The position numbers and the translations under genes are program-made. 45,110 bases of DNA from an uncultured Bacilli bacterium (GTDB lineage Bacteria > Bacillota_I > Bacilli_A > RF39 > UBA660): assembly GCA_910586635.1 (NCBI GenBank), contig CAJUJA010000004.1, positions 1-45,110 on the forward strand. The letters run 5' to 3'. The notes under the pieces were generated by a model. It did no database searches and had not been told where the DNA came from. It was given only the letters and a program-made list of their open reading frames with translations. Positions 10,451 through 43,251 of this stretch are shown here, one piece after another. The first letter of the stretch is position 1, and each line of letters starts with the position of its first letter.

Positions 10451-10903
10451 AATAATGATGGTGATGTCTATATTATTAAAAGGTTAAGGGAAACAAGAGA
10501 AGATAACGAGGAAACACAACACGATATAGCAGATATATTAGAAGTCAAAAGAGGCAATTATGTTTCTTGGGAATGTGGTAGTGATATAATACCGCTAAAA
10601 AAATTATTTCAGTTTGCAAATCATTATAATGCTTCTATTGATTACATTTTAAATTTATCCAATGATAATATAAAAATAGTTTCTAATGCTAATTTAGATA
10701 CATCTATCATTAGTAGAAATTTACGAGAAATAAGATACAACCAAAAAATATCGCAATCTAAAATAGCTGAAAGTATTGGCATTAATCAATCAACTTGGTG
10801 GGTCTATGAAAATGGAATAACATATATAACTACATTAAATTTAATGACACTGTGTAAAAAATATAACTATTCTATTGATTGGATTTTAAATAGAAAAATC
10901 TAA
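10451..10903 (+). CDS. tandem-HTH XRE-family regulator lacking a canonical start codon
   Basis: The frame is open from 10451 to TAA at 10901-10903. It encodes IIKRLRETREDNEETQHDIADILEVKRGNYVSWECGSDIIPLKKLFQFANHYNASIDYILNL and a second HTH, ISRNLREIRYNQKISQSKIAESIGINQSTWWVYENGITYITTLNLMTLCKKYNYSIDWILN. No in-frame ATG/GTG/TTG occurs until near the 3' end. GGTGA at 10460-10464 lies 7 nt before ATT at 10472. An ATG-rich mini-ORF (10455-10487) sits in another frame. Confidence 0.55.
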   Translation, partial: NNDGDVYIIKRLRETREDNEETQHDIADILEVKRGNYVSWECGSDIIPLKKLFQFANHYNASIDYILNLSNDNIKIVSNANLDTSIISRNLREIRYNQKISQSKIAESIGINQSTWWVYENGITYITTLNLMTLCKKYNYSIDWILNRKI

Positions 10904-11103
10904 CTATTAAAAATCAATTAATTTATTATCTCTTTCGATTTATATAAAGATTCATATTTAATAATATTATAGGATATACTATTATAAACAAAATTATTAA
11001 GATAAGTGATAATAGTCAAAATGCAAAAAAAACAAATATATTATCATTAATTTTTTATTACAAATATACTTTTTCTAAAGTGGCAGCTTCTATTTACATT
11101 AAT

Positions 11104-11138
11104 AAAAAAGCATCACATCACTTGTGATTACTTTTTTT
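11104..11138. terminator. bidirectional hairpin terminator between the convergent tandem-HTH gene and the Rhs operon
   Basis: ATCACA-tcact-TGTGAT (11112-11128) is flanked by an A-run on the left and TTTTTTT (11132-11138) on the right. Confidence 0.55.
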
Positions 11139-11216
11139 ATGGCACAGTATAAATCTGTGATTGACTTTCTTAAAGATATCAGAAATGCCATTTACTAAAA
11201 ATATGTCATTAGAAAT

Positions 11217-11681
11217 TTAGTCCTCTTCAACATAATACCACTTATTTTTTAATTTCCTTTTTTTATCTACGTAATGCCATTCATAATCATTATAATTATT
11301 GAAATACACTATATTCTGTGCAAAATTAATTTGAGAATTAAAGCATATTATTATATTATTCTTTTCTTTTTGAATATATTCTACATCAAACTTTTCTATG
11401 AAAGTAGCAATATTTTTATAGCTTTTTTTCAATTCATTAGCACTGATAACAGAGTGTTCTTTATTAATATCCAGTTCATATAGGGAATTGTTTTTTCTTA
11501 AAGTCATAGACTCATAATTTTGATTTAATAATTCATCTTTTAAACTATTAAATTCATTTTGATTCATATAATAATACATCATGATTTTAAAAGAATTTTC
11601 TTTTGCCGAAGGAAAAAATATAATAATTAACATAATACTATATATAACACCAAATAGAGTTAATAAAAACAGTTTTTTCAT
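11217..11681 (-). CDS. candidate cognate immunity protein of the Rhs toxin (small membrane-anchored protein)
   Basis: 154-aa ORF starting 19 nt after the Rhs stop, with a gaggtg RBS. N-terminal hydrophobic segment MKKLFLLTLFGVIYSIMLIIIFFPSA. No recognised family. The immunity assignment rests on position only. Confidence 0.5.
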   Translation of the reverse strand: MKKLFLLTLFGVIYSIMLIIIFFPSAKENSFKIMMYYYMNQNEFNSLKDELLNQNYESMTLRKNNSLYELDINKEHSVISANELKKSYKNIATFIEKFDVEYIQKEKNNIIICFNSQINFAQNIVYFNNYNDYEWHYVDKKRKLKNKWYYVEED

Positions 11682-11700
11682 AAATTAGCACCTCATATAA

Positions 11701-14700
11701 TTAAATTTGTTTTCGCCACATTTCTATTCCTTTTTTTATTGCCTTATGATCATTAGGATCATCACAATAATATGGACCTATTAAAATTTTAGGAGTAGCA
11801 CCACAATGAGCATATCCGCCACCCATATATAATAATTCATCAGAAAATCCCATAGCTTTGCCAACATATCCATAATGTATATTCCCAAAATCTTCTGCAT
11901 CAATCACTTCTCCATTGAATATAAATTTTCCATTATTTTTCAAATATGGAACATCAAACTCCTTCTCCCATATTTCTTCTCTTTTATAATCCCATTCCTG
12001 TTTATGATTAACCTGATTTTTAAAATAGTCTAATGCAGCAGCTTGACTCAAAGTTCTACTATAATAATTAGCTTCTAGAGCATTTTGGTGTAATACCTTA
12101 TTTAATTCAGCACTATAATTAGGCAAATTATTATTATTTTTTTTTGTTGTTTTTTTTGTTGCTTTTTTATTTTTGTTTTTACTAGTAATACTACTTACTA
12201 CCTTAGCTACTTTCTTTACAACTTTGTTAACAACAGATTTAACCTTTTTAAATATTGATTTTAAACTAGTTCCATTATTGTCATAATTATTAATAGGATT
12301 ATTACTTACATATGCATACAAATTACATGATATTATGTCCTGATTTGAACCTAATATAACATCTGGGCTAATAAATCTTCCCCATTTAGGATTATAGTAT
12401 CTATTGTTCAAATAATATAATCCTGTTTCCTCATCATAGTAATAACTTCTATATCTAATTGGGTTTATTTTACCTATATGATTATTGTCAGTAATTTCAA
12501 TACTATTTGAATCTTTTACTGAAATTAAGTCTCCCCAACTGTCATATTCATAAGTTACTATCTTTTCTCCATTTTCATTTAATATTCCTATTACATCATC
12601 TTGCATATTTTTTAAATAAAAATATATATTTTCATTATATTTAAATCCTATTAACCCATCAATATCATATATATAGTATATCATATCATTATTTCTTTTT
12701 TCAAATATAATATTATTATTTATAGTCTTATATTTTGTGCATATACCATTAACAACTTTAGATAACCTTACGCCATTTAAATCATATGCATAATTAACTA
12801 ATATACCATTATCCTCATCTATATATGACTTTAGAGAGTTTCCATCAATCCAAGTTAAACTAGCAGTCCCAATATTAATAGGATTACCAATAGCATCATA
12901 TGATATATTTTCTTCATCAAAGCAAGTCAATTGATCTTCCCAATTAATATTATTATATTGATAAACATGTGTTTTTATAATCGCATTATTACTATTATCA
13001 TATATAGTCTTATTTATAATATTTCCAGAAATATCATATGAATAATCTATATGAGTACCACTATCATAGTTATATTCACTTATTAATTCATTAAAATCAT
13101 CATACTCATAATGTTTTTGTAATTCATCATCATTAAAAATATCAGTTATATTATATAATTGGTCATAAATATATGTATTTTTGCTTCCATTAATTATAAA
13201 ATCTCTTATCATATTGCTTGTTCTTTTTCCATGTGTTAAATAATTAATTTTCAAATTCAAAATACTGCCAATCATTTTTTTATTCATTCTATTTAAGTCA
13301 TCATACTCATAATTAATAATCATATTGTCGTCAGATAACTCAATTACATTCTCATAGCTATCAAAGTTCATATCTTGGCTATGTTCTATATTATCGAATA
13401 TATATTTTTTCTGGACAATATTATTATTGGAATCATATTTATATTTGGTAATAAATTGTTCCTCTTGATACATATATAGTCTATTACTTTCGTCATAATA
13501 AAATTTAGTTTGTCCATAGTTAGATATAATCTTTGATATATTTCCATTATTATTATATTTATATAGATATACATTATCCATCTTCGTTATTTTACTTACT
13601 CTATCAAAATAATCATACTCGAAGTTAATAATATTGTCATTTCCATACAAAATTGATATCAAATTACCATTGTTAGATTCATAGTTATTCTGTAAAAATA
13701 CTATTTGTTCACCCAAAGAAGTTTCCACTATATTTAAAAAGTCATCATATTTTAATTTAAAAATTTTATTTCCCTGACAAATTTCAGAAATTAAATTTTT
13801 ATTATTGTAATGATATATTATTTTTCTTCCATTAAAATCACATGACACTAATTGTTGTCTATCATTATATTCATATGTAGTTATATTTCCCTTTGGATCT
13901 GTACTTGACTCTAATAATCCTGTATTTTGATTATAAGAATACAAGGTTGTATTAAGATTACTATCTGTAAAACTATTTATAAACTTATTATCTTTACTAT
14001 ATGTATATTCTATTTCAGTAAATATGCTTTCTTTTGTTTCAATATAAAACTCAGTTCCAGATTTATCACCATCAAGCACCTTCGTTGATAATAAATTACC
14101 ATTTGCAACAACATACTTTGATACAACCCCATTTGAAGTTATATCTTCATATACTATACTATAAGAATAATCATCATTCTTCAACAATTTAAATAAATTA
14201 TTTGTAGCACTATTTTCTAGAAAAATGTTTCCATCTCTATATGTCATAACATAATCTGGATTCATTAAATAACTGATTTTATAGAAATCTCCCTGTTTTT
14301 CAAATTTCCATAGTGTATTACTACAGTTATTCTCCTCCAAAAGAATATTATTTAACTCTGCTTTAAAGAAACTATTTGTTCCTTTTTCTCTAATTCTAAA
14401 TATACCTCCATCAATTTCTTTAACATATAATTTTGATGTTCTCATTTCAACTGGATTTCCAAAATCATTATATATCATTTTATTAGAAACACCATTATCT
14501 GCTATCATATTTATTACTCGATCTTTTTTAATTTTATCATATTCATATTTAAAACTATTATTTAACGAATTAGTAATACTTATTATTTTATTACTCTCAT
14601 CATATTTAAATGACTCACTATTCTTTGACTGATCTTCTATAGAAATTAAATTTCCTTTTTCGTCATAATTATATTCACCACTTGTGACATTTTTATAAAA

Positions 14701-17700
14701 AGATAAATTTGTTAAATATAACTTATTTGCATCCCCATTTTGAAATAAAGAAATTGTAATTGACTTAAAATCTTCTATTGCCACTTCTTTATTAATATAA
14801 TATTGCCATACATTTTCACTAGTCACTGGTAAAACATAAGAGGATATACAATGACCAAAATCGTCATTGTATGGTTCATAAAATATTGAAATATTAGATG
14901 CTGTATAAGGAGCATATTGTACTATTCCATCATACTTATACCAAAATGCCAGTGTATAAACATCTCCTTTTTTACCTTTTATATCAAATTTTTTATTAAT
15001 ATTTGTAGAATTTAGAGGATTCATTTCTATTCTCAATGCTTTATCATTATTATCATTTATACTAACAACTTTAATATAATCATTGGGATTTAATTCTTGC
15101 TCACCTCTACTGGCAGATAAACTCCATCCTGATAATCCCTGTGAAAAATTAGAATTTTCCAAGATATTATAATAGTTAGCAACTTCTCCAGTTTCTAATT
15201 GAATATCATCTACATAAATAATTCCAATATCTTGCAGTACAATCTTAATTTTCAAATCACTGGTAGCTTCTTCATCATAATATATTGTTGTATCAGTTCT
15301 TTCAAACTCATCAGACACCTTAATAGTTTCGGAGCTTTCTATTTCATTATCCTTACTATCAAAGTATGATAAAGAAATATATGCTGCAATATTACTTTTT
15401 ATATATGCGCTAAATGTATAGTATTGTCCTTTTTTAATAATAACATCCTGTTCAATACATCTGTTATTCGAGCTTGATTGTAATTTTAAACTTCTTAATC
15501 CTGAATGATAAAATTCTGTATCAAAATTTTTTGTTATTCCATCTTCAGATATAAAATAATCATTGTCAACTTCAAAACTTGTATTTTTTAATAAATTGTT
15601 TATATGCCTAATAGGAATCACATCTGAAACTATATCATTATTTTCATTATATTCTTCTTTAATCGAATATGCATTGGTAATATCATTAATAGATTTTAAA
15701 TTACTTTTTGATACCACATTACCATTAGTATTGTACGCAAGCAATTCTACTCTACCCTTATGATCTATAATGGTTGTACAACCTAATCCATATTCAAGTG
15801 TATAAAATTGCCCTATTTTATGATTCAATCCATATTGAATAACTTTTTTTACTCTATAAGGACTTTTTTCATAATACTCATAATTTATTTTTAAACCAGT
15901 AACATCGGTAATTCCAGAAATTACATTAGTTGATGCATATTCAAATAAAGTTTTCCCATTTTTTGTATTAATTGAAGTAAGAATGTCATTTTCATATTGT
16001 AATGTAACTATTTCACTCTGACTATTTATAATTATTTTATCTTCAGCATAGGTTATATTAATTATATTATCAAAACTATCAGTAATTTTATTAATTGAAT
16101 TATTTTGGTTTAATATAATGCTAATTTCATTTCCATTACTATCTTTGATTTTTGTTAAATGGTATATATCACCTATCTTAGTAAAGGTTTTTATTTCACC
16201 ATTACTACTTGTCATTATGTAGTCTAAGTTATCTTTTACAATACTTAATCCTAAACCATCTTCATCATAATAACTATTTTTATCTTGTGAAGAATCAAAT
16301 CCATATCCGCCAAGATTAAAATAATGAATAGTACCATCTTCATCAATATATTGTAGTCTATTTTCATCTTGCTCTTTTATATATTGTTCTAGATTTAACT
16401 TAAACCCTTTCCCAAAAAAAGTACTATTTTCTAAAATAACATCATTAGTATTATAAACCAATTCTAAACCTACAGGAATTGCTCCTCCTATTGTTTTCCC
16501 TAAACTAAATACTGAAGTAATATTACCATTATATGTATTAATATATGAAACCCCATCTGTAAAATTTTGCTTTTTATAATCCCAATAAGTCTCTAAACCA
16601 TTTTGATTACGATATGTTATAGCTGCAATTGGTTTAGGATTTCCTGATACTTGATTTTCTGTAGAAAAAAACATTGGAAAATCATCATCAACATATTCTT
16701 CATTACAAGATTTTATCATTATACCATAATTTGGAGTATCACGATACCACTTCTTCACTAAATTGGTTATATCAAAACCAGTGGTTCTATAACTTAAGGT
16801 AGAATTAACAATAGTTGATCTTTCAAATTCATATACAGATTCGACTCTATTATTGAATTTATCATTCATCACATTCCAAGTTGCTGTATTAACATCCCAA
16901 TCTGAAGTTACTTGATGAGTTTCCATTAAATAAACTTTTGAAGAAGTATTAGAAGTAGATTTAACATAAGGAACAACATATAATGCTGCATCAATAATTT
17001 CACTACCTGTTCCTATTTGTGGCAAAGTAAATTTGATAAGTGTCCTATTAATTCTATCTACACCGTTGATATGTTCTACTCCTGCTTTTAAATAATGTTT
17101 TGCATTTCTATTGTCATTATTATCACCTGGATAAATATATGTATCATATAAAGAAAGTTCATTGTTTTCATTCGTTATAGTTGGATCTATATAGACTGGA
17201 AATATTCTTTTTTCAGAACTCAACCACTCATCGTCCAAAACCAACGTCAAAATATATCCATCATCAAAACTATTAAGTAAATAATGAATACTATCATTTC
17301 TTATTTCATTCGAATCCATCATATATGGTTTTTCAATTTTAAATATAATTTGCCCCTTTTCATTCTTAGCTATTATCTCCCCATCTTCATTTGATAAAAT
17401 TAGATCAGTATCTAATTCAAAATTTAATTCTGAATAATTAGCGTTTTGTAATACAATTGTTTCCTTTACCTTATTTGATAAAGTTTGATATTCAACTTTA
17501 ATATCATCAGTAATATTATTATAAGTAATATTTTGCATTTTTTTAGAAATTTTTCTTTTTTCAGATTTAAGATTGCCTATACTTGATTGTCTAATCTTAA
17601 AATCTATATAATGATCATCCTTAGTCATCTTCATTAATGAATCTCTAAAATTTTCTTTAAATTCGACTTTATAATCATTATTTTTATTTCTTAATACACC

Positions 17701-17859
17701 ATTCTCACATACCAAAGTATTATCAATTTCTTCATACTTTCCATCTTTCAAATAATGAATATCTGTATCATATACTTCAGCAAGAATTGTACCATCTTCT
17801 CTTAGAAAATGTTTTTCACGAGGTTTTCTTTTTTCTATTAGTTCAATTTGCTTCATCAT
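11701..17859 (-). CDS. Rhs/YD-repeat polymorphic toxin, 2052 aa, no recognisable export signal
   Basis: Many YD repeats (YSYNQNTGLLESSTDPKGNITTYEYNDRQQLVS, YKYNNNGNISKI, YEYDDLNRMNKK, YSYDISGNIINK, ISYDAIGNPINIG). Rhs-associated core at aa ~1765-1865 (VTYEYDSWGDLISV...INPIRYRSYYYDEETGLYYLNNRYYNPKWGRFISPD...NLYAYVSNNPINNYDNNGT). A Lys-rich linker and a 187-aa C-terminal domain follow. Two CBM4_9/galactose-binding-like modules at aa ~753-892 and ~897-1057 (NLLKNTSFEVDNDYF; NILENSNFSQGLSGWSLS). A possible beta-trefoil lectin insert at aa ~1150-1278 (TLWKF, NLFKL). The N-terminus MMKQIELIEKRKPREKHFLRED is hydrophilic. Confidence 0.9.
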   Translation of the reverse strand: MMKQIELIEKRKPREKHFLREDGTILAEVYDTDIHYLKDGKYEEIDNTLVCENGVLRNKNNDYKVEFKENFRDSLMKMTKDDHYIDFKIRQSSIGNLKSEKRKISKKMQNITYNNITDDIKVEYQTLSNKVKETIVLQNANYSELNFELDTDLILSNEDGEIIAKNEKGQIIFKIEKPYMMDSNEIRNDSIHYLLNSFDDGYILTLVLDDEWLSSEKRIFPVYIDPTITNENNELSLYDTYIYPGDNNDNRNAKHYLKAGVEHINGVDRINRTLIKFTLPQIGTGSEIIDAALYVVPYVKSTSNTSSKVYLMETHQVTSDWDVNTATWNVMNDKFNNRVESVYEFERSTIVNSTLSYRTTGFDITNLVKKWYRDTPNYGIMIKSCNEEYVDDDFPMFFSTENQVSGNPKPIAAITYRNQNGLETYWDYKKQNFTDGVSYINTYNGNITSVFSLGKTIGGAIPVGLELVYNTNDVILENSTFFGKGFKLNLEQYIKEQDENRLQYIDEDGTIHYFNLGGYGFDSSQDKNSYYDEDGLGLSIVKDNLDYIMTSSNGEIKTFTKIGDIYHLTKIKDSNGNEISIILNQNNSINKITDSFDNIINITYAEDKIIINSQSEIVTLQYENDILTSINTKNGKTLFEYASTNVISGITDVTGLKINYEYYEKSPYRVKKVIQYGLNHKIGQFYTLEYGLGCTTIIDHKGRVELLAYNTNGNVVSKSNLKSINDITNAYSIKEEYNENNDIVSDVIPIRHINNLLKNTSFEVDNDYFISEDGITKNFDTEFYHSGLRSLKLQSSSNNRCIEQDVIIKKGQYYTFSAYIKSNIAAYISLSYFDSKDNEIESSETIKVSDEFERTDTTIYYDEEATSDLKIKIVLQDIGIIYVDDIQLETGEVANYYNILENSNFSQGLSGWSLSASRGEQELNPNDYIKVVSINDNNDKALRIEMNPLNSTNINKKFDIKGKKGDVYTLAFWYKYDGIVQYAPYTASNISIFYEPYNDDFGHCISSYVLPVTSENVWQYYINKEVAIEDFKSITISLFQNGDANKLYLTNLSFYKNVTSGEYNYDEKGNLISIEDQSKNSESFKYDESNKIISITNSLNNSFKYEYDKIKKDRVINMIADNGVSNKMIYNDFGNPVEMRTSKLYVKEIDGGIFRIREKGTNSFFKAELNNILLEENNCSNTLWKFEKQGDFYKISYLMNPDYVMTYRDGNIFLENSATNNLFKLLKNDDYSYSIVYEDITSNGVVSKYVVANGNLLSTKVLDGDKSGTEFYIETKESIFTEIEYTYSKDNKFINSFTDSNLNTTLYSYNQNTGLLESSTDPKGNITTYEYNDRQQLVSCDFNGRKIIYHYNNKNLISEICQGNKIFKLKYDDFLNIVETSLGEQIVFLQNNYESNNGNLISILYGNDNIINFEYDYFDRVSKITKMDNVYLYKYNNNGNISKIISNYGQTKFYYDESNRLYMYQEEQFITKYKYDSNNNIVQKKYIFDNIEHSQDMNFDSYENVIELSDDNMIINYEYDDLNRMNKKMIGSILNLKINYLTHGKRTSNMIRDFIINGSKNTYIYDQLYNITDIFNDDELQKHYEYDDFNELISEYNYDSGTHIDYSYDISGNIINKTIYDNSNNAIIKTHVYQYNNINWEDQLTCFDEENISYDAIGNPINIGTASLTWIDGNSLKSYIDEDNGILVNYAYDLNGVRLSKVVNGICTKYKTINNNIIFEKRNNDMIYYIYDIDGLIGFKYNENIYFYLKNMQDDVIGILNENGEKIVTYEYDSWGDLISVKDSNSIEITDNNHIGKINPIRYRSYYYDEETGLYYLNNRYYNPKWGRFISPDVILGSNQDIISCNLYAYVSNNPINNYDNNGTSLKSIFKKVKSVVNKVVKKVAKVVSSITSKNKNKKATKKTTKKNNNNLPNYSAELNKVLHQNALEANYYSRTLSQAAALDYFKNQVNHKQEWDYKREEIWEKEFDVPYLKNNGKFIFNGEVIDAEDFGNIHYGYVGKAMGFSDELLYMGGGYAHCGATPKILIGPYYCDDPNDHKAIKKGIEMWRKQI

Positions 17860-17868
17860 AATACTCTC

Positions 17869-18417
17869 CTAACTAATTCTTTTCCACATATAAACTGCAA
17901 GATATGGAGGCATATTATTGTGAGCACCATTTCCACCAGTTTTTTGACATCCAGAAATATCTCCTCCTATTATTGCATTTCCATTTCCATGAAATGGCAC
18001 ACCTTTTCCTGAATTTCCAGACCCATCATGGGAATGAAATATTAAGGCATGTGCATGGCTTGGCATTTCTGAAGTAGTAAGTTTATGTGTTTCCTCACCA
18101 CCAATTGATCCATTTTGGTAGGTATTTCCACATGCTAATAGAAATTTATCTTTAATTTGTTCCCAACTTCCTCCAAAAAGAAACCCTGGATCTTTTTCAT
18201 TTGTTGAAATATAAATAGAACCAACTGGATACATAGCATTCAATAATGTATCTGAAATTAAGGCATCCGTCTTCAAACTTTTCACTGCTAAGTTTCCTTC
18301 ACTATCTAATTCAAATTTATTATTTTTAGAAGTAACACAAGTTACATTTAAGTTGTTTACTTCTAAATTTGTATTTTCTCCTTCTTTTGTAAAAGCATTT
18401 GTTATATAATCATTCAT
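17869..18417 (-). CDS. phage tail-collar / baseplate-fibre-type protein
   Basis: YPVGSIYISTNEKDPGFLFGGSWEQIKDKFLLACG...GGEETHKLTTSEMPSHAH...GGNGAHNNMPPYLAVYMWKRIS matches the pattern of Firmicute phage tail-collar domain proteins (P.GSIY..., GG.W, LT..EMPSH.H, HNN.PPY..VY.WKR). Its TAG stop lies within the RBS (taggagag) of the Rhs gene 10 nt downstream. Confidence 0.6.
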   Translation of the reverse strand: MNDYITNAFTKEGENTNLEVNNLNVTCVTSKNNKFELDSEGNLAVKSLKTDALISDTLLNAMYPVGSIYISTNEKDPGFLFGGSWEQIKDKFLLACGNTYQNGSIGGEETHKLTTSEMPSHAHALIFHSHDGSGNSGKGVPFHGNGNAIIGGDISGCQKTGGNGAHNNMPPYLAVYMWKRIS

Positions 18418-18458
18418 TTTCTTCTCCTCTTTTCATTTATAATTTTGTATATAACTTT

Positions 18459-18487
18459 TTTATATTAAGTATTGTTAAGCAAGTAAA
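18459..18487 (-). promoter_or_regulatory. candidate sigmaA-type promoter for the tail-collar/Rhs/immunity operon
   Basis: Minus strand reads TTTACT (18487-18482), 17-nt spacer, TATAAA (18464-18459), about 40 nt upstream of the ATG at 18417. Weak evidence in AT-rich DNA. Confidence 0.3.
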
Positions 18488-18523
18488 TAACATCTAGCAT
18501 TTTATTAAACTTTCAAATCATAT

Positions 18524-18600
18524 TATCATCTCACTTTCTAATGACAATTTCTCATAGAAAGAAGAGATTTAACAGTATATGCAAAGTACCATTATTTTTC
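18524..18600 (-). repeat. copy A of a bipartite intergenic element shared by the two island operons
   Basis: Plus-strand block 1 is tatcatctcactttct (18524-18539). Block 2 is tttaacagtatatgcaaagtaccattatttttc (18568-18600). Compare copy B at 20329-20386. A degenerate extra block 2 lies at 18663-18683 (agtacgtcagacataccattc). Confidence 0.6.
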
Positions 18601-18687
18601 CTTACTTTATAAGGGGTTTATATGTAAATACTCCAACTTTTGACCAAAATACTATTCAAAATAGTACGTCAGACATACCATTCTAAG

Positions 18688-18710
18688 AAAAAAAGACTAA
18701 AATTTAGTCT
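18688..18710 (-). terminator. rho-independent terminator after the endolysin gene
   Basis: Minus strand reads AGACTAA-att-TTAGTCT followed by TTTTTTT, about 41 nt after the endolysin stop. It separates the lysis cassette from the Rhs operon. Confidence 0.65.
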
Positions 18711-18751
18711 AATTTACCAGTAAATATGTTATTAATCTAAAATTTACAATG

Positions 18752-19696
18752 TCATACTTCATACAAAAAGGTACTATATATCCATACATTATAACCATTG
18801 ATTTCTAATTTAGCAGAATTTGTTTTTGTATCTATGTTTTTTACCTCATAAATATTTTTATTAATTACGTAACTTTTACCTCCAACTACTTTATCATCCT
18901 GTCCTTGTGAATTTCCATATTGATCCACCTCTGTAAAATCGTCTAATGGTATCCAGTGATAATCTTTAGCTAGTTCTCTATAATAATCATTATAACTAAC
19001 ACCAGTTAATTTTGTATTACCAAAAAGATTAGTAGATAGTGGACTTTTTAAAATATCCACTTTAAAAATACCATCAAACTTAACCTTAGAACCAACATGA
19101 AGTATTTGGTCAACTGCTTCTACCTGTTTTACTGGAGTATCTTTTACCAATATATCTTTAGTAGTTCTCCAATTACCATCATTACCCTTTATAATGTTAG
19201 TATTATCTACAAAGTAACAATCATCTAAATCATACTCATTATTAAAATGATAATTACCATATTGATTTTTGAACCAAGAAGTATCAGAACTTTGACTAAC
19301 TTCTATATGGCAATGAACTCCAGTCATATTGGAATATCCTTTCCTTCCCATATTTCCTAACCGACTTCCTTGCTCTACAACCTGTCCAACTCTAACATCC
19401 ATAGTCTCATCATGAGCAGTCATAAATGTTGCATAATCAACTCTTCCATTGGCAAATCTTACTTTTTTAGTCGATTGCCACATAACTTGTCCTGTTTTAG
19501 GGTAGGTTTTTATGCATTTACAGGTACAGGAAGCATAATAGGGATATTTGACTCCTGCTACTTTTCCTCTTACGTCATTAGCAAGTATCCCCTTATGAGA
19601 ATAAGCACCTCCTGAGCCTTGTGATATATACATATCAGTGAAAGGACATAAAAAATTTTCAATTCCCCTATTACTAGACTTTTGACCTTTTATCAT
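18752..19696 (-). CDS. M23-family peptidoglycan endopeptidase with SH3-like C-terminal cell-wall-binding half (endolysin)
   Basis: NMTGVHCHIEVSQ fits the M23 s.TG.HLH.E motif, with an upstream SHKGILANDVRG...G metal-ligand region. The C-terminal half (VGSKVKFDGIFKVDIL...; KSYVINKNIYEVKNID...WIYSTFLYEV) looks like tandem SH3-type binding modules. ATGA start/stop overlap with the holin gene. Confidence 0.65.
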   Translation of the reverse strand: MIKGQKSSNRGIENFLCPFTDMYISQGSGGAYSHKGILANDVRGKVAGVKYPYYASCTCKCIKTYPKTGQVMWQSTKKVRFANGRVDYATFMTAHDETMDVRVGQVVEQGSRLGNMGRKGYSNMTGVHCHIEVSQSSDTSWFKNQYGNYHFNNEYDLDDCYFVDNTNIIKGNDGNWRTTKDILVKDTPVKQVEAVDQILHVGSKVKFDGIFKVDILKSPLSTNLFGNTKLTGVSYNDYYRELAKDYHWIPLDDFTEVDQYGNSQGQDDKVVGGKSYVINKNIYEVKNIDTKTNSAKLEINGYNVWIYSTFLYEV

Positions 19697-19932
19697 ATTA
19701 CTTCTACCCTTTTCTTATTTATATAATTAGCAATTAATGTTTTTACTGCTGATATTGCTGCAGCTAATCCTCCAATACAAGAACTCTTAAAAATTGCTCC
19801 ATTATAATCTATTGTATTAGATAAAACTACAGAAAATCCACCTAAAAAACCTTCTACAAATGTCCAAAAAACTCGTCTTACAATATCACTTTTCATAAAA
19901 AATTTAATTTTACTTAATATTTTCTTCATCAT
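19693..19932 (-). CDS. phage-type holin
   Basis: 79 aa, two hydrophobic helices (VFWTFVEGFLGGFSVVLS; SCIGGLAAAISAVKTLIA) and a charged C-terminus (NKKRVEVI). It lies immediately upstream of the endolysin gene and overlaps it. Confidence 0.65.
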   Translation of the reverse strand: MMKKILSKIKFFMKSDIVRRVFWTFVEGFLGGFSVVLSNTIDYNGAIFKSSCIGGLAAAISAVKTLIANYINKKRVEVI

Positions 19933-19940
19933 ATCACCTT

Positions 19941-20255
19941 CTAATTTAATCTGTCTTCTAATTTATCAATCCTATCATGAGCATGTTTTGTATTCTCTTC
20001 ACATCTTGCAACACGTTCACTTATATCATCAAACTTATTATTCAAATTTTTGACTTCATTTTTAAGTTCAACATTTCCAGTAATTACCAAATCAAGCTTA
20101 GTTGAGATTGTAGTATCTCTTTTCACACGTTCTTCTATAGCCTCTTTGTTATCATTATTCATATTATTTTTGTAAGTCAAAATAGCTATTAAGGATGTGA
20201 TGATAGTACAAAAGATAGATATAATTAGTGAATAATTTATACTCATTCTTATCAC
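19941..20255 (-). CDS. membrane-anchored coiled-coil lysis accessory protein (BhlA/UviB-like topology, XhlA-like coiled coil)
   Basis: N-terminal TM segment INYSLIISIFCTIITSLIAILTY, then a heptad-rich region ending AHDRIDKLEDRLN. First gene of the lysis cassette. GTG at 20255 or ATG at 20246 (MSINYS...) could be the start. Confidence 0.45.
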   Translation of the reverse strand: MIRMSINYSLIISIFCTIITSLIAILTYKNNMNNDNKEAIEERVKRDTTISTKLDLVITGNVELKNEVKNLNNKFDDISERVARCEENTKHAHDRIDKLEDRLN

Positions 20256-20328
20256 TTCTTTCTATATATTAAAATAGATTAATAACAATCATTATTTAAA
20301 TCATGTCATATCAATATCCCTCCATTTC

Positions 20329-20386
20329 TATCATCACTTTCTCACAATAATAGTTAAGTTTACAGTACGTGCGGCGTACCTTTTTC
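20329..20386 (-). repeat. copy B of the bipartite intergenic element (upstream of the lysis cassette)
   Basis: Plus-strand block 1 is tatcatcactttct (20329-20342). Block 2 is tttacagtacgtgcggcgtacctttttc (20359-20386). Block 2 contains the GC-rich palindrome GTACG-tgcgg-CGTAC, conspicuous in AT-rich DNA. Confidence 0.6.
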
Positions 20387-20408
20387 TAAATATAATTAAT
20401 TAGACTTC

Positions 20409-20927
20409 TTAACTTAAAGGATCAAAATGATTAACCTGCAGTATCTGATTGATATCATCAATTGGAGAATCATATAAATTTCTTAATATGTAACAGTATA
20501 GGCAACTCTTCTCATTATCATAACTTTCTATATGGAATCCTGCCATTTTAAGTAAATCGAAACTAAACTCTGGTGGTAATTTCATTCCAATACATAAAGC
20601 GATTATTGTTTCTAATGAATATCCTCTTTTTCGATTCGTTTCTATTTCCTTAATAGTTTGTGAACTAATATAGGACTTTTCTTCTAACTTTTCTCTTGTC
20701 ATTCCCATACTTTCTCTTAAATATCTTAATTTTCTTCTAAAATCGTATGGTAAATCATCACATATAATAGAAACCTTATTATAATAATTTTCAAATTTTT
20801 TAGGAGATTTTTTTATTTCATAAATTGATTCAAATTTTTTTATCTTTTGTCTCTTTTTCATTCTTATATTTGCATCAAAATTACTAACTACTTTGGATAA
20901 ACTGCTTTCTCTTTCCTTTTTATTCAT
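20409..20927 (-). CDS. XRE-family HTH transcriptional regulator
   Basis: FRRKLRYLRESMGMTREKLEEKSYISSQTIKEIETNRKRGYSLETIIALCIGMKL is an HTH_3 domain. The tail LLKMAGFHIES...INQILQVNHFDPLS is typical of a common Firmicute XRE subfamily. ATG at 20927 follows a ggggtg RBS (track start is GTG at 20936). Confidence 0.7.
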   Translation of the reverse strand: MNKKERESSLSKVVSNFDANIRMKKRQKIKKFESIYEIKKSPKKFENYYNKVSIICDDLPYDFRRKLRYLRESMGMTREKLEEKSYISSQTIKEIETNRKRGYSLETIIALCIGMKLPPEFSFDLLKMAGFHIESYDNEKSCLYCYILRNLYDSPIDDINQILQVNHFDPLS

Positions 20928-21076
20928 AATATACACCCCTGTTAATTAGCTATAATAGCAAAAAAAAAGAGACATGAATATCACCATAATTATACTATAA
21001 TTGATCGAGTATGTCCTATATAAGTATAGCTTGATTAGGCATAATACCGTTTATTAACACTCATCATTTAAACATA

Positions 21077-21385
21077 CTATCTATTTAAGGATTTATTTTT
21101 ATTTTTTCTTCTTTTTCTGTTTTTGTGATTATCTTTTACAATTTTATAATGTAGTAAATCTTCTATCCTGCAATTTAAAGCAAAACACATACGAGATAGC
21201 AAATCTAAATCTACTCTATATAATTTTCCTTCAACATATTTTTGAATAACACTCCAATTAATACCTGTTAATCTACTCAATCTATAGACATTCATATGCT
21301 TCTTTTTTAAAACTTCTTCAATTGTTAAAACAATTTCTCCATAGTTCTTATATATTTTTTCATATACATATCTCTCTTTTCCCAT
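21077..21385 (-). CDS. Cro/C1-type (HTH_26-like) transcriptional regulator with a basic tail
   Basis: MNVYRLSRLTGINWSVIQKYVEGKLYRVDLDLLSRMCFALNCRIEDLL fits the Cro/C1 HTH_26 pattern. The C-terminus is KNRKRRKNKNK. Confidence 0.65.
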   Translation of the reverse strand: MGKERYVYEKIYKNYGEIVLTIEEVLKKKHMNVYRLSRLTGINWSVIQKYVEGKLYRVDLDLLSRMCFALNCRIEDLLHYKIVKDNHKNRKRRKNKNKSLNR

Positions 21386-40766: not shown

Positions 40767-42077
40767 ATGAGTAAGCTAATTGAATTAAATAAAAAGGACT
40801 ATGAAAATTTTGTCATAAATCATAAATCAAAATCCCACTTTTTACAATCTTATAATTGGGGAGAATTTGCTAAAAAGGAAAAGAATCTTTTCCCCTATTA
40901 TCTTGGTCTAATTAGTGATAGTGGAAAAGTTATGGCTACTGCTTTGCTATTACAAAAAAAACTTCCCTTTAATCTTTGCTATTTCTATATTCCTCGTGGT
41001 TTTGTCATTGATTTTAATAACAGAGATCTAGTAAAAATAATGACAGAAGAGATTAAAAAATTTTGTAAAGAAAAGAAAGCAATCTTTTTTAAAATCGATC
41101 CTGATATTATCCATAGTCAATTTAATTATTTAGGCCAAAAGGTAGATATTCCTAATGATCAAGAAGAGATCTTTCAGACTTTGAAAATTTTAGGATATAA
41201 ACACCTAGGTTTTACTAAAAATTTTGAAACCAGCCAACCACGATATACCTTTAGAATCGACTTAAATCAAGAGTTAGATACCATCGTCGATCATTTTTCT
41301 AAAACTACCAAACAACGTATCAATAAGGCTAAAAAACTAGAAGTAGAAGTAGAAATTGGTAGTGAAGAAGACCTAGATACTTTTTATCAATTAATGATGC
41401 TAACAGAAAATAGAAAAGACTTTGTATCTTTTTCCAAAGAATACTACAAAACACAATACCAAATATTAAAAAAAGATCACATGATTGTATTATTTTTAGG
41501 AAAAGTTAATACAGAAAAAATTATAAAAAATTATGAAGAAGAGCTTTCTAAAATACAAGACGATCTTCAAAATCTAGATACTGAAACACTTAGTAAAAGT
41601 GCTAAAAATAAAGTTAAAAATTTAACTAGTCAAAAGGAGAACCTAATAAAGGAAATTAACAAATTTGAATTAGCAAGAAAAAAATATGGATCTACCATTC
41701 CTTTAAGTGCTCATATGATTATTACTTATGGAAATAAAGCTTGGGTTTTATATGCTGGAAATCATAATATTTTAACGGAAACTTATACCAATTACGCTAC
41801 TTATTTCGAACATATCAAATATTGTAAAGAACATGGAATTGAAATTTATGATCAGTTTGGAACGATAGGAGATTTATCTAGCAATAATCCTAGAATGGGG
41901 CTTCATGAATTTAAAAAGAAATTTGGAGGCGACTATATTGAATTTTTAGGAGAATTCGATTATATCTTAAAACCATTTCTTTACTTTGTATTTCAAAAAC
42001 TGGTACCATTTTATAGAAACATAGTAAAAAATAAATCTAAAAGGGAGTTAAAAAATGAAATTGAGGGAAATAAATAA
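40767..42077 (+). CDS. FemAB-family peptidoglycan interpeptide-bridge aminoacyltransferase (with coiled-coil insert)
   Basis: HFLQSYNWGEFAKKEKN, FYIPRGFVIDF, FFKIDPD, PRYTFRIDL, an internal coiled-coil region (EEELSKIQDDLQNLDTE...ENLIKEINKFE) and C-terminal LHEFKKKFGG: the typical FemA/FemB/FemX architecture. Confidence 0.85.
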   Translation: MSKLIELNKKDYENFVINHKSKSHFLQSYNWGEFAKKEKNLFPYYLGLISDSGKVMATALLLQKKLPFNLCYFYIPRGFVIDFNNRDLVKIMTEEIKKFCKEKKAIFFKIDPDIIHSQFNYLGQKVDIPNDQEEIFQTLKILGYKHLGFTKNFETSQPRYTFRIDLNQELDTIVDHFSKTTKQRINKAKKLEVEVEIGSEEDLDTFYQLMMLTENRKDFVSFSKEYYKTQYQILKKDHMIVLFLGKVNTEKIIKNYEEELSKIQDDLQNLDTETLSKSAKNKVKNLTSQKENLIKEINKFELARKKYGSTIPLSAHMIITYGNKAWVLYAGNHNILTETYTNYATYFEHIKYCKEHGIEIYDQFGTIGDLSSNNPRMGLHEFKKKFGGDYIEFLGEFDYILKPFLYFVFQKLVPFYRNIVKNKSKRELKNEIEGNK

Positions 42078-43251
42078 AAAGGAATTTTTTGATTTTTGTA
42101 AAAAGGAAGCAACCAATAACTTTTTTCAAACTAAAGAATATGCAGAACTATCTAGAAAAAAAGGATGGTATACATACTTTTTAGGAGTAGATCAAAACGG
42201 TAAAATACGTGCTGCTACTATGTTATTAGCTAGAAAACTTAAGTTTTCTAAATCTAAGATTTTTTATGCTCCTAGGGGCTTCATCATAAACTTTAAGGAT
42301 TTAGAATTGGTTCGATTTCTAACCAGGGAACTCAAAATTTTTATAGAGGAAAGAAAAGGTGCTTTTTTAAGAATCAATCCCTATTATCCATTAAAACAAG
42401 TGGATAATAGTGGAACCTATATTCCTGGAGGATTTAATAATCAAAAGTCCCTGGAAGTTTTAAATCAATTAGGCTACAAAAGAAACCAAGGGGTAATAAC
42501 CGCTCCTCAGTTTCTTTATACCCTAGATTTAAAGGGGAAAAACGAGGAAGAGTTACTCGCAAACTGTAGTGAACCCTATCAAAAAACAATTTTAAATAAC
42601 ATCAGACGAGGATTTATTACGGAAGAGGTAGAAGAGGCTCAACTACCAGCTGTTTTAGAATTAATTTCTAATAGTAAGCAAAAAATTAATTTCATTGAAG
42701 ACTTATCTTTATTGAATGAATTTTATCAAATCTTTAAAGAAAGTAATATGATTAAAATTAATCTAGTACAAATGGACATTGATCTATACTTAGAAAACAT
42801 TCAAAAAGAAAAAGAGAATATGGATGCTGGTATTATGGGTCAAAATTCTTACAGCCAAATTTCTAAAGAGCTGCAATTAGTAAATAATTTGCAATATCAA
42901 TATGGTCATAAAGTAATTCTAGGATGTAATATATCTATTTGCTACGGTCGTGAGGTAACTACCATTTCTACTGCTGTTAATAATAAATTTATTGAGTTTA
43001 ACCCACTTTATACCCTTACATGGAACACGATAAAGGATGCTAAAAAAAATGGATTCGAAATCTATAACTTTTATGGTGTCGGAAATGATTTATCTGGGCA
43101 AAACTCAATCTATCAATATTATAAAGGGTTTCATGGAGAACTCATACAACTGATTGGAGAATTTGATTTCGTTATAAATGAATTTATTTATAAACATTAT
43201 TGTGAATATAGTTCTAAACATAAGAAGAAAATTACCGATTTTAAAAAATAA
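42055..43251 (+). CDS. FemAB-family peptidoglycan interpeptide-bridge aminoacyltransferase (second paralog)
   Basis: FFQTKEYAELSRKKGW, FYAPRGFIINF, FLRINPY, YNFYGVGNDLSG...YQYYKGFHG. It overlaps the 3' end of the first paralog by 23 nt and has its own aagggag RBS. Confidence 0.85.
   Translation: MKLREINKKEFFDFCKKEATNNFFQTKEYAELSRKKGWYTYFLGVDQNGKIRAATMLLARKLKFSKSKIFYAPRGFIINFKDLELVRFLTRELKIFIEERKGAFLRINPYYPLKQVDNSGTYIPGGFNNQKSLEVLNQLGYKRNQGVITAPQFLYTLDLKGKNEEELLANCSEPYQKTILNNIRRGFITEEVEEAQLPAVLELISNSKQKINFIEDLSLLNEFYQIFKESNMIKINLVQMDIDLYLENIQKEKENMDAGIMGQNSYSQISKELQLVNNLQYQYGHKVILGCNISICYGREVTTISTAVNNKFIEFNPLYTLTWNTIKDAKKNGFEIYNFYGVGNDLSGQNSIYQYYKGFHGELIQLIGEFDFVINEFIYKHYCEYSSKHKKKITDFKK

Follow-up and report, generated by a model that had tools for sequence, protein, structure and literature searches.

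A candidate lysis-coupled, fibre-guided Rhs bacteriocin island in an uncultured gut Bacilli bacterium

We analysed a 45,110-nt stretch of DNA (the window) and propose that its region 10466-21385 is a compact phage-derived bacteriocin island, in which a leaderless Rhs toxin guided by a phage-type fibre tip would be set free by lysis. As the best explanation of the locus as a whole, we give this reading a probability of about 0.55. The island would comprise three parts: one or two XRE-type regulators; a lysis operon that joins a holin and an M23 endolysin to a membrane coiled-coil protein; and a toxin operon in which the Rhs-Ntox44 toxin is accompanied by a fibre-tip protein and an immunity protein. 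The placement of lysis and toxin genes behind one conserved control sequence suggests that some producer cells burst to let the toxin out, and our verdict from the sequence is that the island would represent a new form of holin/endolysin-dependent toxin release.

In the proposed mechanism, the 236-kDa Rhs cage and its fibre-tip partner, neither of which has a signal peptide, would fold in the cytoplasm of induced cells. Holin and endolysin would open membrane and wall, and the complex would leave, most likely through lysis of that cell. The conserved N-terminal ~50 residues of the fibre tip are predicted to dock to the conserved Rhs N-domain, and receptors on the surface of related bacteria would be recognised jointly by the variable fibre-tip head and the CBM96-like domain. 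After that, Ntox44, predicted to be an RNase, would be delivered from the cage, and the 154-aa immunity protein would shield sister cells.

Gene content and the lysis operon

The seven genes of the preliminary description were recovered on the minus strand of the window in the same order and at the same coordinates. One flank of the island carries spoIVA, engB, ackA, thiI, ezrA, tyrS and femAB, and the opposite flank spoVIF and der. That description had reported no phage structural genes beside the lysis genes, which proved true of the full 45 kb: no integrase, terminase, portal, capsid, tail or other phage structural gene was found in the window. The host, an uncultured gut Bacilli spore-former, is known from MAGs alone.

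The lysis operon opens with a membrane-anchored, XhlA-like coiled-coil protein (19941..20255, minus strand) of 104 aa, or 101 aa from the ATG at 20246 that gene callers choose as its start. It has one N-terminal TM helix, matches phrog_1863 (function unknown; 3e-17) and, weakly, phrog_937 (‘hemolysin’), and is kept in sister islands. It had been called BhlA/UviB- or XhlA-like; architecture and position are indeed XhlA-like, but Pfam and NCBIfam gave no match to BhlA or XhlA at E≤0.01. The second gene (19693..19932, minus strand) encodes a 79-aa holin-like protein with two hydrophobic helices and a charged C-terminus. Scans of Pfam, NCBIfam and PHROGs returned no family match for it, and the holin call stands on size, helices, position and a homologue (1e-17) in a genuine prophage lysis module, placed between the tail genes and the M23 lysin (L106). 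Its stop codon and the M23 start share an ATGA overlap (19693-19696), as first described.

The third gene (18752..19696, minus strand) encodes an endolysin with an N-terminal M23 metallopeptidase and a putative C-terminal wall-targeting domain. Its score against the Pfam M23 profile (26.3 bits) falls under the 28.7-bit cut-off; the assignment is secure because of homology to the M23 domain of phi29 gp13 (PDB 3csq, E 4.5e-24) and to endolysin PHROGs (phrog_9066, 1e-16), not because of Pfam. The metal-binding motifs are also invariant (H34, D41, H95, H128 and H130, 11 homologues). The SH3-like half of the original call was not confirmed: the C-terminal half had no SH3 match and showed only weak similarity to the ZoocinA target-recognition domain (ZoocinA_TRD, E 0.003), and a single-sequence AF2 model was of low confidence (pLDDT 29). 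Across island species the lysin is 66-80% identical, conserved more strongly than the toxin N-terminus, and it is under purifying selection (dN/dS ~0.1–0.2; dN of 0.15-0.27 with a saturated dS among island-type species). By homology, the lysin and the fibre tip are of phage origin, and the sequence evidence supports lysis genes that are phage-derived, free-standing and intact. Behind the lysin gene lies a terminator-like hairpin (18688..18710, minus strand) with a 7-bp stem, 2 G-C pairs and a T-run. The terminator described earlier is thus present, albeit weak: RNAfold gave ~-7 kcal/mol for the 43-nt stretch containing it, and it was too weak to be picked up by a consensus terminator scan.

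The Rhs toxin, its fibre-tip partner and its immunity gene

The leaderless polymorphic toxin of 2052 aa (11701..17859, minus strand) was defined by Pfam and NCBIfam domains and an AF2 model of its N-terminus. A β-rich N-domain (1-235) is followed by a DNRLRE/CBM96-like domain (238-414) that matches CBM96-type polysaccharide-binding modules, DUF6531 (456-514), CBM-like inserts (~750-1050), a YD shell, the Rhs core (Rhs_assc_core, 1772-1863) and Ntox44 (1946-2048). Membership in the Rhs/YD-repeat family is given by RHS_repeat (1e-22), YD_repeat_2x (5e-19) and TIGR03696 (5e-21, at 1772-1863), and the variable C-terminal toxin (Ntox44, 8e-18) is followed by an immunity gene; from these domains the Rhs protein is predicted to act as a toxin. 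As previously noted, its ribosome-binding site (AGGAG) overlaps with the TAG stop codon of the gene before it.

We judged the absence of Sec/Tat signals from the hydropathy of 83 Rhs and Gp10_C N-termini and from alignment. Rhs N-termini were hydrophilic in 83 of 83 loci, and so were those of Gp10_C across loci, save a few that are probably mis-started. The linked cargo is thus, by hydropathy, free of a Sec/Tat signal, as T10SS cargo is. The claim of a signal-less N-terminus without a T7SS-type domain therefore survived scrutiny, and profile and structure searches for a cryptic export domain there found none: the AF2 model of residues 1-450 is all-β, with no helical LXG/WXG-type domain, and we saw no Sec, LXG or PAAR feature. 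Distant non-Rhs homologues of the N-domain have classical signal peptides, so it functions extracellularly.

Three known kinds of toxin were considered and did not fit. The all-β model and the lack of a Pfam or NCBIfam LXG match speak against a T7SSb toxin of the LXG/WXG type, and the lack of a PAAR or VgrG match in the same databases and the Bacillota host against a T6SS/PAAR-type Rhs effector. WapA proteins are, as far as is known, Sec-dependent and wall-associated; the hydrophilic N-terminus and the lack of wall-binding repeat matches do not agree with an Rhs of this type.

Directly 5′ of the Rhs gene, in 80 of 83 loci, lies a gene for a leaderless tail-fibre-tip protein, here 182 aa long (17869..18417, minus strand). 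The preliminary description had placed a tail-collar protein here and treated it as incidental. A tail-type protein it is, but the match is to Gp10_C (PF21939, 1e-18, with tail-fibre PHROGs), and far from being incidental it is the toxin’s most conserved partner. Gp10_C combines a conserved N-segment with hypervariable head loops; the N-segment co-varies with Rhs residues 1-235 (Spearman 0.50), and the head does not (0.15). In one prophage (L154) the head shares 68% identity with the fibre tip of the resident phage itself. Gp10_C is probably the targeting subunit of the Rhs toxin; we propose that it acts as a trimeric receptor-binding partner, from which a physical Gp10_C-Rhs complex and recognition of targets by fibre tip and CBM96-like domain would be expected. 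In 21 relatives a small coiled-coil ORF stands between the Gp10_C and Rhs genes, the position of a fibre-assembly chaperone.

The gene behind the toxin (11217..11681, minus strand) encodes a 154-aa protein with an N-terminal hydrophobic helix, a feature unexpected for immunity to a cytoplasmic RNase. No other related Rhs locus shares it. Homologues with 74-81% identity occur directly after orphan Ntox44 fragments in two other contexts on four contigs (L158/L159 and L160/L161). Because it pairs with Ntox44 elsewhere, the protein behaves, as far as gene context tells, as the cognate Ntox44 immunity protein, in keeping with the kin-protecting role first ascribed to it.

Regulation and linkage of the lysis and toxin operons

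Two regulator genes precede the lysis operon. An HTH_26 (Cro/C1-type) regulator of 102 aa (21077..21385, minus strand; PF13443, 6e-17) has a homologue in the same position only in L017/L096. An XRE regulator of 175 aa (20409..20936, minus strand; HTH_3, PF01381, 1e-7) has homologues in every island-type locus; it aligns to positions 496-620 of the 626 of phrog_4031 and represents the C-terminal portion of the ~580-aa ImmA/IrrE(M78)-HTH fusions of sister islands, whose long forms have Peptidase_M78. At the other end, a double-HTH reading frame of 145 codons without a start codon (10466..10903, plus strand), related to regulators flanking other Gp10_C-Rhs loci, is a probable recent pseudogene.

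The two operons share a composite cis element of ~60 nt, GGTAC-N7-RTACTG-N17-TGAGAAAnT-N5-TAGAAAnnGAG, found, in the window as in ~11 species, on the coding strand 5′ of both the lysis operon and the Gp10_C gene. Copy 1 (20320..20380, minus strand; GGTAC-N7-GTACTG, N17, TGAGAAAnT-N5-TAGAAAnnGAG) precedes the lysis operon and is followed by a Shine-Dalgarno sequence and the mini-ORF ATGACATGA (20301-20309). Copy 2 (18530..18590, minus strand) precedes the toxin operon and is followed by the mini-ORF ATGATTTGA (18513-18521). Internal spacing is identical, with 36 nt from GGTAC to TGAGAAA. An extra operator-like palindrome (18662..18679, minus strand; GGTAT-N7-GTACT) has a perfect counterpart in sister islands, AAATGGTAC-N7-GTACCATTT. 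The composite element occurs at these two positions only in the island, and a search of the 5.4 Mb of loci found it nowhere else, including the prophage-type loci, except for one degenerate match common to the redundant L009-L012. As an identical operator/leader element precedes each operon, the two are probably switched on together; the conserved element predicts co-regulation of cargo and lysis, and co-induction would be its outcome. A LexA box or other recognisable inducing signal was looked for and not found.

Relatives of the leaderless Rhs N-terminus occur in 400 or more species genomes, and we examined the neighbourhoods of 83 related Rhs loci. Lysis genes were adjacent in ~16 of these (~19%). 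Most of the 83 have housekeeping genes as neighbours and, in place of lysis genes, a sigma-70-region-4 protein or another regulator, and even the closest Rhs relative (L015, 68% identity) has no lysis cassette, so the family must be able to work without a linked one. Lysis genes and Rhs module are syntenic in ~11 species with differing chromosomal contexts; island-type loci may descend from one fusion event, in which case these are not 11 independent associations. Elsewhere the module adjoins other lysis genes: a GH25-CW_7-LysM lysin at 18-19 nt (L014, L033), a 261-aa M23 protein at 4-5 nt (L066, L068, L074, L075), or a holin_4_1 gene with no recognised lysin (L026, L032, L084). The idea of lysis-mediated Rhs release, put forward in the preliminary description, is thus supported in silico by standalone lysis genes, a shared cis element and signal-less cargo, but holds more narrowly than implied: the association recurs outside prophages in ~11 species and is not general to the Rhs N-terminus.

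The reciprocal survey covered 22 assessable full-length M23 homologues. Eleven precede Gp10_C-Rhs, each with a regulator rather than tail genes upstream, so the lysis genes are not confined to intact prophages with the Rhs operon unlinked. The closest lysin homologues otherwise close genuine siphophage tail modules (e.g. L106, L097), and phage structural genes adjoin M23 homologues in L106 and L154. The module is not stand-alone everywhere: in complete siphophage-type prophages of four genomes (L152-L155) and on two IMG/VR contigs (L162, L163) the cassette is ordinary cargo at the prophage end, directly after the holin/M23 genes. The presence of lysin and holin homologues in complete prophages also fits the picture of a decaying remnant.

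These prophages speak for the likeliest of the alternatives, a prophage remnant by descent, whose cassette is former cargo at the lysis end, whose structural genes were lost and whose toxin exits by another route. It would account for window-type M23 and holin homologues that close ordinary tail modules, and for the ~80% of related Rhs loci that lack lysis genes. We nevertheless consider it unlikely, as ~11 species keep the lysis genes intact and under purifying selection, a regulator replaces tail genes directly upstream, and one conserved cis element, lacking in prophage-type loci, precedes both operons; a functionless leftover would not keep a duplicated operator across species.

Routes of release and known systems

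We infer lysis as the toxin’s exit route. Non-lytic export of the T10SS or TcdE kind, by local passage through holin and endopeptidase with survival of the producer, seems to us rather improbable. Chitinases of Serratia and Salmonella are known to be secreted non-lytically with the help of a holin, a route also proposed for clostridial toxins and Bcn5 (PMC9527704, PMC13284979), and the three relatives with holin_4_1 and no recognised lysin would suit such a route. The cargo, however, is a ~236-kDa folded cage with a probable fibre trimer, and the cassette retains a complete endolysin, its putative wall-targeting domain included, alongside the XhlA-like accessory protein, as lytic phage modules do; lytic and non-lytic use differ in no sequence feature that would tell them apart. 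Still harder to credit is a particle-borne toxin, anchored by Gp10_C to a phage or tailocin encoded elsewhere that the lysis genes would serve. In its favour are the tail-fibre tip identity of Gp10_C, its copying of the resident phage’s fibre tip in L154, and the ORF of 21 relatives at the chaperone position, which would fit fibre assembly. Yet tail, sheath and baseplate genes are absent from the 45-kb window and from beside most of the 83 loci, the prophage module lies downstream of the lysis genes and outside the structural block, and the Gp10_C N-segment co-varies with the Rhs N-domain, not with any phage protein. Intracellular suicide or defence (e.g. abortive infection), with no delivery elsewhere, we regard as very improbable: the island does join self-lysis functions to a toxin, and some Rhs elements act as intracellular toxin-antitoxin-like modules (PMC7043789), but ~1000 residues of adhesin-/CBM-type domains typical of extracellular binding, a receptor-binding fibre-tip partner with hypervariable loops, and a polymorphic C-terminal toxin/immunity pair with orphan arrays, as in competition systems, all speak against it, on family scans that covered Pfam, NCBIfam and PHROGs.

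Lysis-coupled release of a soluble toxin, the reading we prefer, has close precedents. As in T10SS, a holin-like gene and an M23 lysin are encoded together outside a prophage, the holin being called from features and context. Yersinia entomophaga YenTc and Serratia ChiWXYZ likewise link a phage-derived holin and peptidoglycan endopeptidase to large signal-less cargo, and in Yersinia a specialised subpopulation lyses in a T10SS-dependent manner to release the Tc toxin with its Rhs-type (TcB/TcC) cocoon (PMC10847048). In contrast to these systems, the island’s host is Gram-positive and for that reason no spanin is encoded: no spanin-like gene was found in the window, and none is expected in a monoderm. 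Its extra component is instead the XhlA-like membrane coiled-coil protein, its lysin is of the M23 kind, akin to phi29 gp13, rather than a ChiX-type L-Ala-D-Glu endopeptidase, and its cargo is an antibacterial-type polymorphic Rhs with immunity gene and fibre-tip partner, without a TcA translocator.

Leaderless clostridial toxins and Bcn5 bacteriocins are also linked to holin/endolysin genes (PMC9527704). The C. difficile PaLoc (TcdR/TcdE/TcdL), C. perfringens Bcn5 (UviA/UviB with amidase) and TpeL/TpeE resemble the island in a Bacillota host, a signal-less toxin, a holin of phage type, accompanied in some cases by an endolysin, and a dedicated regulator (PMC9527704), and many relatives of the locus have a small sigma-70-region-4 protein at the place of UviA or TcdR. 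They differ in that their cargo is a glucosyltransferase toxin or Bcn5 and not an Rhs cage, the island’s holin and accessory protein match neither TcdE nor BhlA in Pfam, NCBIfam or PHROGs (the holin having no match at all), the regulators in the window are XRE-type and not sigma factors, and its endolysin is complete whereas TcdL is a remnant. WapA of B. subtilis and S. suis shares the YD-repeat shell, Rhs core, polymorphic C-terminal toxin, downstream immunity gene and orphan arrays, and a DNRLRE-type domain has been reported in S. suis WapA proteins (PMC12704120); unlike WapA, none of the 83 members of the present family has a signal peptide, and 80 have the Gp10_C partner. Phage-encoded polymorphic toxins and morons compare with the prophage-type loci, which hold the cassette at the classical cargo position; the window differs in having no prophage, with regulators, lysis genes and toxin module remaining under a dedicated common operator.

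A wider proposal, which we offer tentatively and against which we think the odds still lean, is that Gp10_C-Rhs forms an unrecognised class of soluble two-component bacteriocins, common among gut Bacilli (400 species genomes or more), in which a leaderless cage is guided to its prey by an exchangeable, receptor-binding phage-fibre tip and released by altruistic phage-style lysis under a dedicated regulon. If true, Gram-positives would have their own equivalent of Tc-toxin/T10SS release, directed against bacteria and independent of contact, secretion system and tail.

The Rhs toxin, its immunity gene and its fibre-tip partner

Family scans divided the Rhs protein into a DNRLRE/CBM96 domain (residues 238–414), DUF6531, RHS/YD repeats, an Rhs-associated core (1772–1863) and Ntox44 (1946–2048), the last region having no sequence match among solved structures. 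We sought relatives with the first 450 residues, using one genome per species. A single-sequence scan of these genomes with the Rhs N-terminus gave no match and a 26-sequence alignment was too diverse for search patterns; a 16-sequence alignment gave a workable search and returned at least 400 species-level relatives, nearly all from gut metagenome-assembled genomes (MAGs) labelled Bacilli, Tenericutes or Erysipelotrichaceae. The analysed set comprised 83 loci, namely the best 80 of these at least 400 relatives and three loci fetched earlier. All 83 N-termini share the hydrophilic start MKEIELIxxRxxREKHFL, and none of the 83 carries a hydrophobic leader. An AlphaFold model of residues 1–450 was all-β (pLDDT 77), with residues 238–414 superposing on CBM96-type alginate- and chondroitin-binding modules and nothing similar to an LXG, WXG or PAAR-like domain. 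The check for a cryptic export domain proposed in the preliminary description thus left its leaderless N-terminus standing. Assignment as a WapA-type, LXG-type or PAAR-type Rhs protein was rejected, the defining N-terminal feature of each being absent on examination. Distant homologues of the N-domain (25–31% identity) are ~770-aa non-Rhs proteins without a fibre gene nearby; because they bear classical signal peptides, the normal site of work of the N-domain is predicted to be outside the cell. Many full-length genes (L029, L031, L036, L068, L073, L076, L078 and L158 among the related loci) are followed by arrays in which orphan Rhs C-terminal fragments each precede a small ORF, as is classic for polymorphic toxins; no such array occurs in the window.

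The 154-aa protein encoded downstream of the toxin (11217–11681, minus strand) matched no family in family scans. Its homologues (74–81% identity) immediately follow orphan Ntox44 fragments in two other contexts on four contigs (L158–L161), one context being an orphan array behind another Gp10_C-Rhs gene. This pairing favours the earlier proposal that the downstream gene protects kin, and by its sequence associations the gene behaves as expected of a cognate Ntox44 immunity gene. The protein opens with a strongly hydrophobic helix (MKKLFLLTLFGVIYSIMLIIIFF), which would be unexpected if Ntox44 is a cytoplasmic RNase and raises questions about topology and about where the toxin acts.

Directly upstream of the Rhs gene, the minus strand encodes a 182-aa protein matching Gp10_C (1e-18) and many tail-fibre PHROGs. 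A Gp10_C-domain gene, likewise leaderless, occupies this position in 80 of the 83 loci. The first ~50 residues of Gp10_C are conserved and its head loops hypervariable. Comparison across loci shows co-variation of the N-segment with Rhs residues 1–235 (Spearman 0.50), as strong as that of the two Rhs N-terminal domains with each other (0.47), but none for the head (0.15). In a prophage-borne locus (L154), the head of the Gp10_C protein encoded at L154:10792–11391 shares 68% identity, across 136 residues, with the tip at the C-terminus of the 649-aa tail fibre of the phage itself (L154:7450–9399), so that this toxin and its phage may have a common receptor. We infer that Gp10_C is a phage-derived receptor-binding subunit whose N-segment docks on the Rhs N-domain and whose tip is exchanged independently. 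In 21 of the 83 loci (L030, L034, L035, L037–L039 and others), a ~121-aa coiled-coil ORF without a family match lies between the Gp10_C and Rhs genes, mostly where the Gp10_C protein is long (350–480 aa); a tail-fibre assembly chaperone would occupy this position.

Lysis genes and their linkage to the toxin module

The window is low-GC (~27%) chromosomal DNA of an uncultured spore-forming member of the Bacilli, with spoIVA, spoVIF and SASP genes. All seven genes of the preliminary description were recovered on the minus strand at the positions it assigned, as were the ATGA overlap of holin stop and lysin start and the Rhs ribosome-binding site overlapping the preceding stop codon. Because the other genes of the 45 kb have housekeeping roles (EzrA, TyrS, FemAB, AckA, ThiI, Der), the lysis genes are, as it had claimed, unaccompanied by phage structural genes. 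A prophage in the window was ruled out, since the large flanking ORFs encode housekeeping proteins such as EzrA, TyrS and FemAB. In 23 contigs from metagenomes or MAGs the identical island has spoIVA on one side and spoVIF/der on the other; in one MAG (GCA_948748485.1, L007:3363–9532), an otherwise identical Rhs gene is broken into 724-aa and 1306-aa ORFs, by either a frameshift or an assembly error. Elsewhere in the window (40767–43251, plus strand), two neighbouring genes of the FemAB family imply a peptidoglycan that contains interpeptide bridges, the class of substrate on which M23 endopeptidases usually act.

The 314-aa lysin (minus strand) matched endolysin PHROGs, with a sub-threshold Pfam M23 match. 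Its similarity to the M23 domain of phage phi29 gp13 (PDB 3csq, 4.5e-24) and the invariant His and Asp residues among its homologues secure the M23 assignment at the level of sequence. The SH3-like C-terminal half described earlier found no support in family searches; this half has weak similarity to the target-recognition domain of zoocin A. A single-sequence structure model of the lysin was unusable (pLDDT 29). Of the two smaller lysis proteins, also encoded on the minus strand, the 104-aa membrane coiled-coil protein matched only phrog_1863, a function-unknown family, and the 79-aa two-helix protein matched no family in family scans.

We counted lysis genes next to the 83 Rhs loci by clustering and Pfam/PHROG annotation of upstream ORFs. 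The M23 lysin cassette adjoins the module in 11, GH25 lysins lie 18–19 nt from the fibre gene in two (L014, L033) and Holin_4_1 genes occur in three, giving any adjacent lysis gene in about 16 of 83 (19%). This is far above an expectation of ~2%, which is our rough estimate rather than a computed control, and involves at least three non-homologous cassettes. Loci with no lysis, sigma or HTH neighbour have plain housekeeping neighbours. The neighbourhood survey suggested in the preliminary description therefore upholds recurrent linkage but not linkage general to the Rhs family: lysis genes as a universal neighbour were ruled out, since most loci have housekeeping genes upstream.

A reciprocal survey from the M23 lysin covered 62 loci. 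Enough downstream sequence was available for 22 full-length homologues. Gp10_C-Rhs follows 11 of them, and in each of these cases the lysis genes come after an XRE regulator, at times a fusion with an ImmA/IrrE M78 peptidase, instead of after tail genes. The remaining 11 either stand alone or sit at the end of genuine siphophage tail modules, such as that of L106 with its major tail protein, tape measure, Dit and minor tail protein. Four further genomes (L152–L155) and two IMG/VR contigs (L162, L163) have both a complete phage tail module and the toxin module, in the order tail module, XhlA-like gene, holin, 261-aa M23 lysin and, after 4–5 nt, Gp10_C-Rhs. Phage carriage as a rule for the module was ruled out, IMG/VR having given these two true matches only. 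Probably, the toxin cassette travelled as cargo behind a phage lysis module, and one lineage kept only the regulator, lysis genes and toxin.

A shared cis element and its candidate regulators

Both intergenic regions of the island contain a composite element, GGTAC-N7-RTACTG followed after 17 nt by TGAGAAAnT-N5-TAGAAAnnGAG, with identical internal spacing in the two minus-strand copies, one upstream of the lysis operon (20320–20380) and one upstream of the Gp10_C gene (18530–18590). An extra palindrome lies at 18662–18679 (minus strand). The palindrome within the element is of the kind that dimeric HTH proteins typically use as an operator. After each element comes a strong Shine-Dalgarno sequence with a mini-ORF of 2–4 codons (20301–20309 and 18513–18521, minus strand; ATGACATGA and ATGATTTGA), in the same position in sister islands of ~10 species; translational control is one possibility for its role. 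When both strands of all fetched loci (5.4 Mb) were searched for this pattern, the element proved almost confined to these two positions of island-type loci, which carry regulator, lysis genes and Gp10_C-Rhs without phage structural genes: most have both copies and the rest have one. There were no matches in prophage-type or other Rhs loci, and the sole other match was one degenerate site common to the redundant loci L009–L012. Because the element is common to both operons and an HTH gene is present in every island, the lysis and toxin operons are predicted to form one regulon. SOS control via LexA found no support, there being no LexA box in the island, and the conserved leaders matched no known RNA element in Rfam.

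At the island's edge, a 145-codon plus-strand frame for a double-HTH XRE protein (10466–10903) has no in-frame ATG, GTG or TTG start, and ATGATGGTGATG at 10455–10466 is in a different frame. Intact homologues (35–43% identity, 144–170 aa) flank Gp10_C-Rhs loci in at least nine other species, and the frame is probably a recently disabled regulator marking the island's true end. Other regulators occur across the family. In 23 of the 83 loci (L009, L030, L034–L041 and others), a 161-aa sigma-70-region-4 protein is encoded just upstream of the Gp10_C gene; UviA or TcdR occupies the equivalent position in clostridial toxin loci. A membrane-anchored HTH protein occurs in 11 of 83, nine of which also encode a secreted 250-aa protein. 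The upstream pairing of this HTH_3 protein (~255 aa) with the signal-peptide protein, which has no assigned family (L014, L020, L027, L033, L044, L050, L064, L093), may represent a sensor-regulator pair.

Proposed release by lysis and its implications

The best-supported reading, to which we give a probability of roughly 0.55, has four steps. The lysis and toxin operons would be induced together, the Rhs cage and fibre-tip protein would assemble in the cytoplasm, holin and endolysin would set the complex free, and the fibre tip and CBM domains would direct it to related cells, where Ntox44 would be delivered. The lysis-release interpretation of the preliminary description thus gains evidence for functional coupling, through the shared element and purifying selection, and loses family-wide linkage. 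A functionless prophage remnant, with the toxin exported by another route, is unlikely: about 80% of the family has no linked cassette, so lysis genes need not adjoin the toxin, which leaves room for such a route, but the shared operator and purifying selection speak against a remnant. The M23 lysin is 66–80% identical between species (dN 0.15–0.27, dS saturated); both the toxin N-terminus and the fibre protein are less conserved. Non-lytic export mediated by the holin is more doubtful still, and it is improbable that the toxin is carried on phage or tailocin particles made elsewhere. An intracellular suicide or defence role is very improbable.

Functionally, the proposed release would resemble type 10 secretion and the lysis-dependent exit of the Yersinia Tc toxin, which has an Rhs-type cocoon (PMC10847048), as well as the clostridial holin-linked leaderless toxins and Bcn5 bacteriocins (PMC9527704). 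Several features set the island apart: the absence of a spanin, its host being a monoderm; a phi29-gp13-type M23 lysin; XRE-type regulators; a polymorphic Rhs of antibacterial type, accompanied by an immunity gene, as cargo; and the Gp10_C partner. Within the open-access library searched, full texts on Rhs with holin, tail collar or DNRLRE gave no description of this arrangement, in line with the preliminary description, which was aware of none.

To our knowledge, how Gram-positive Rhs toxins without Sec or T7SS signals are delivered is not known, and the locus offers a concrete, testable answer. The family is large, with at least 400 species-level genomes, mostly of uncultured gut Bacilli, and its examined members are leaderless and nearly all paired with a fibre tip. 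In one sub-lineage, a phage lysis cassette appears to have come under joint control with the toxin operon via a shared, predicted operator, and this conserved operator and the small regulator are direct handles for reporter and binding work. If true, the reading would extend lysis-cassette (T10SS-like) release to antibacterial polymorphic toxins in Bacillota, would mean modular retargeting of toxins through exchange of phage receptor-binding tips, and would point to programmable protein antibacterials with a narrow spectrum for use in gut communities.
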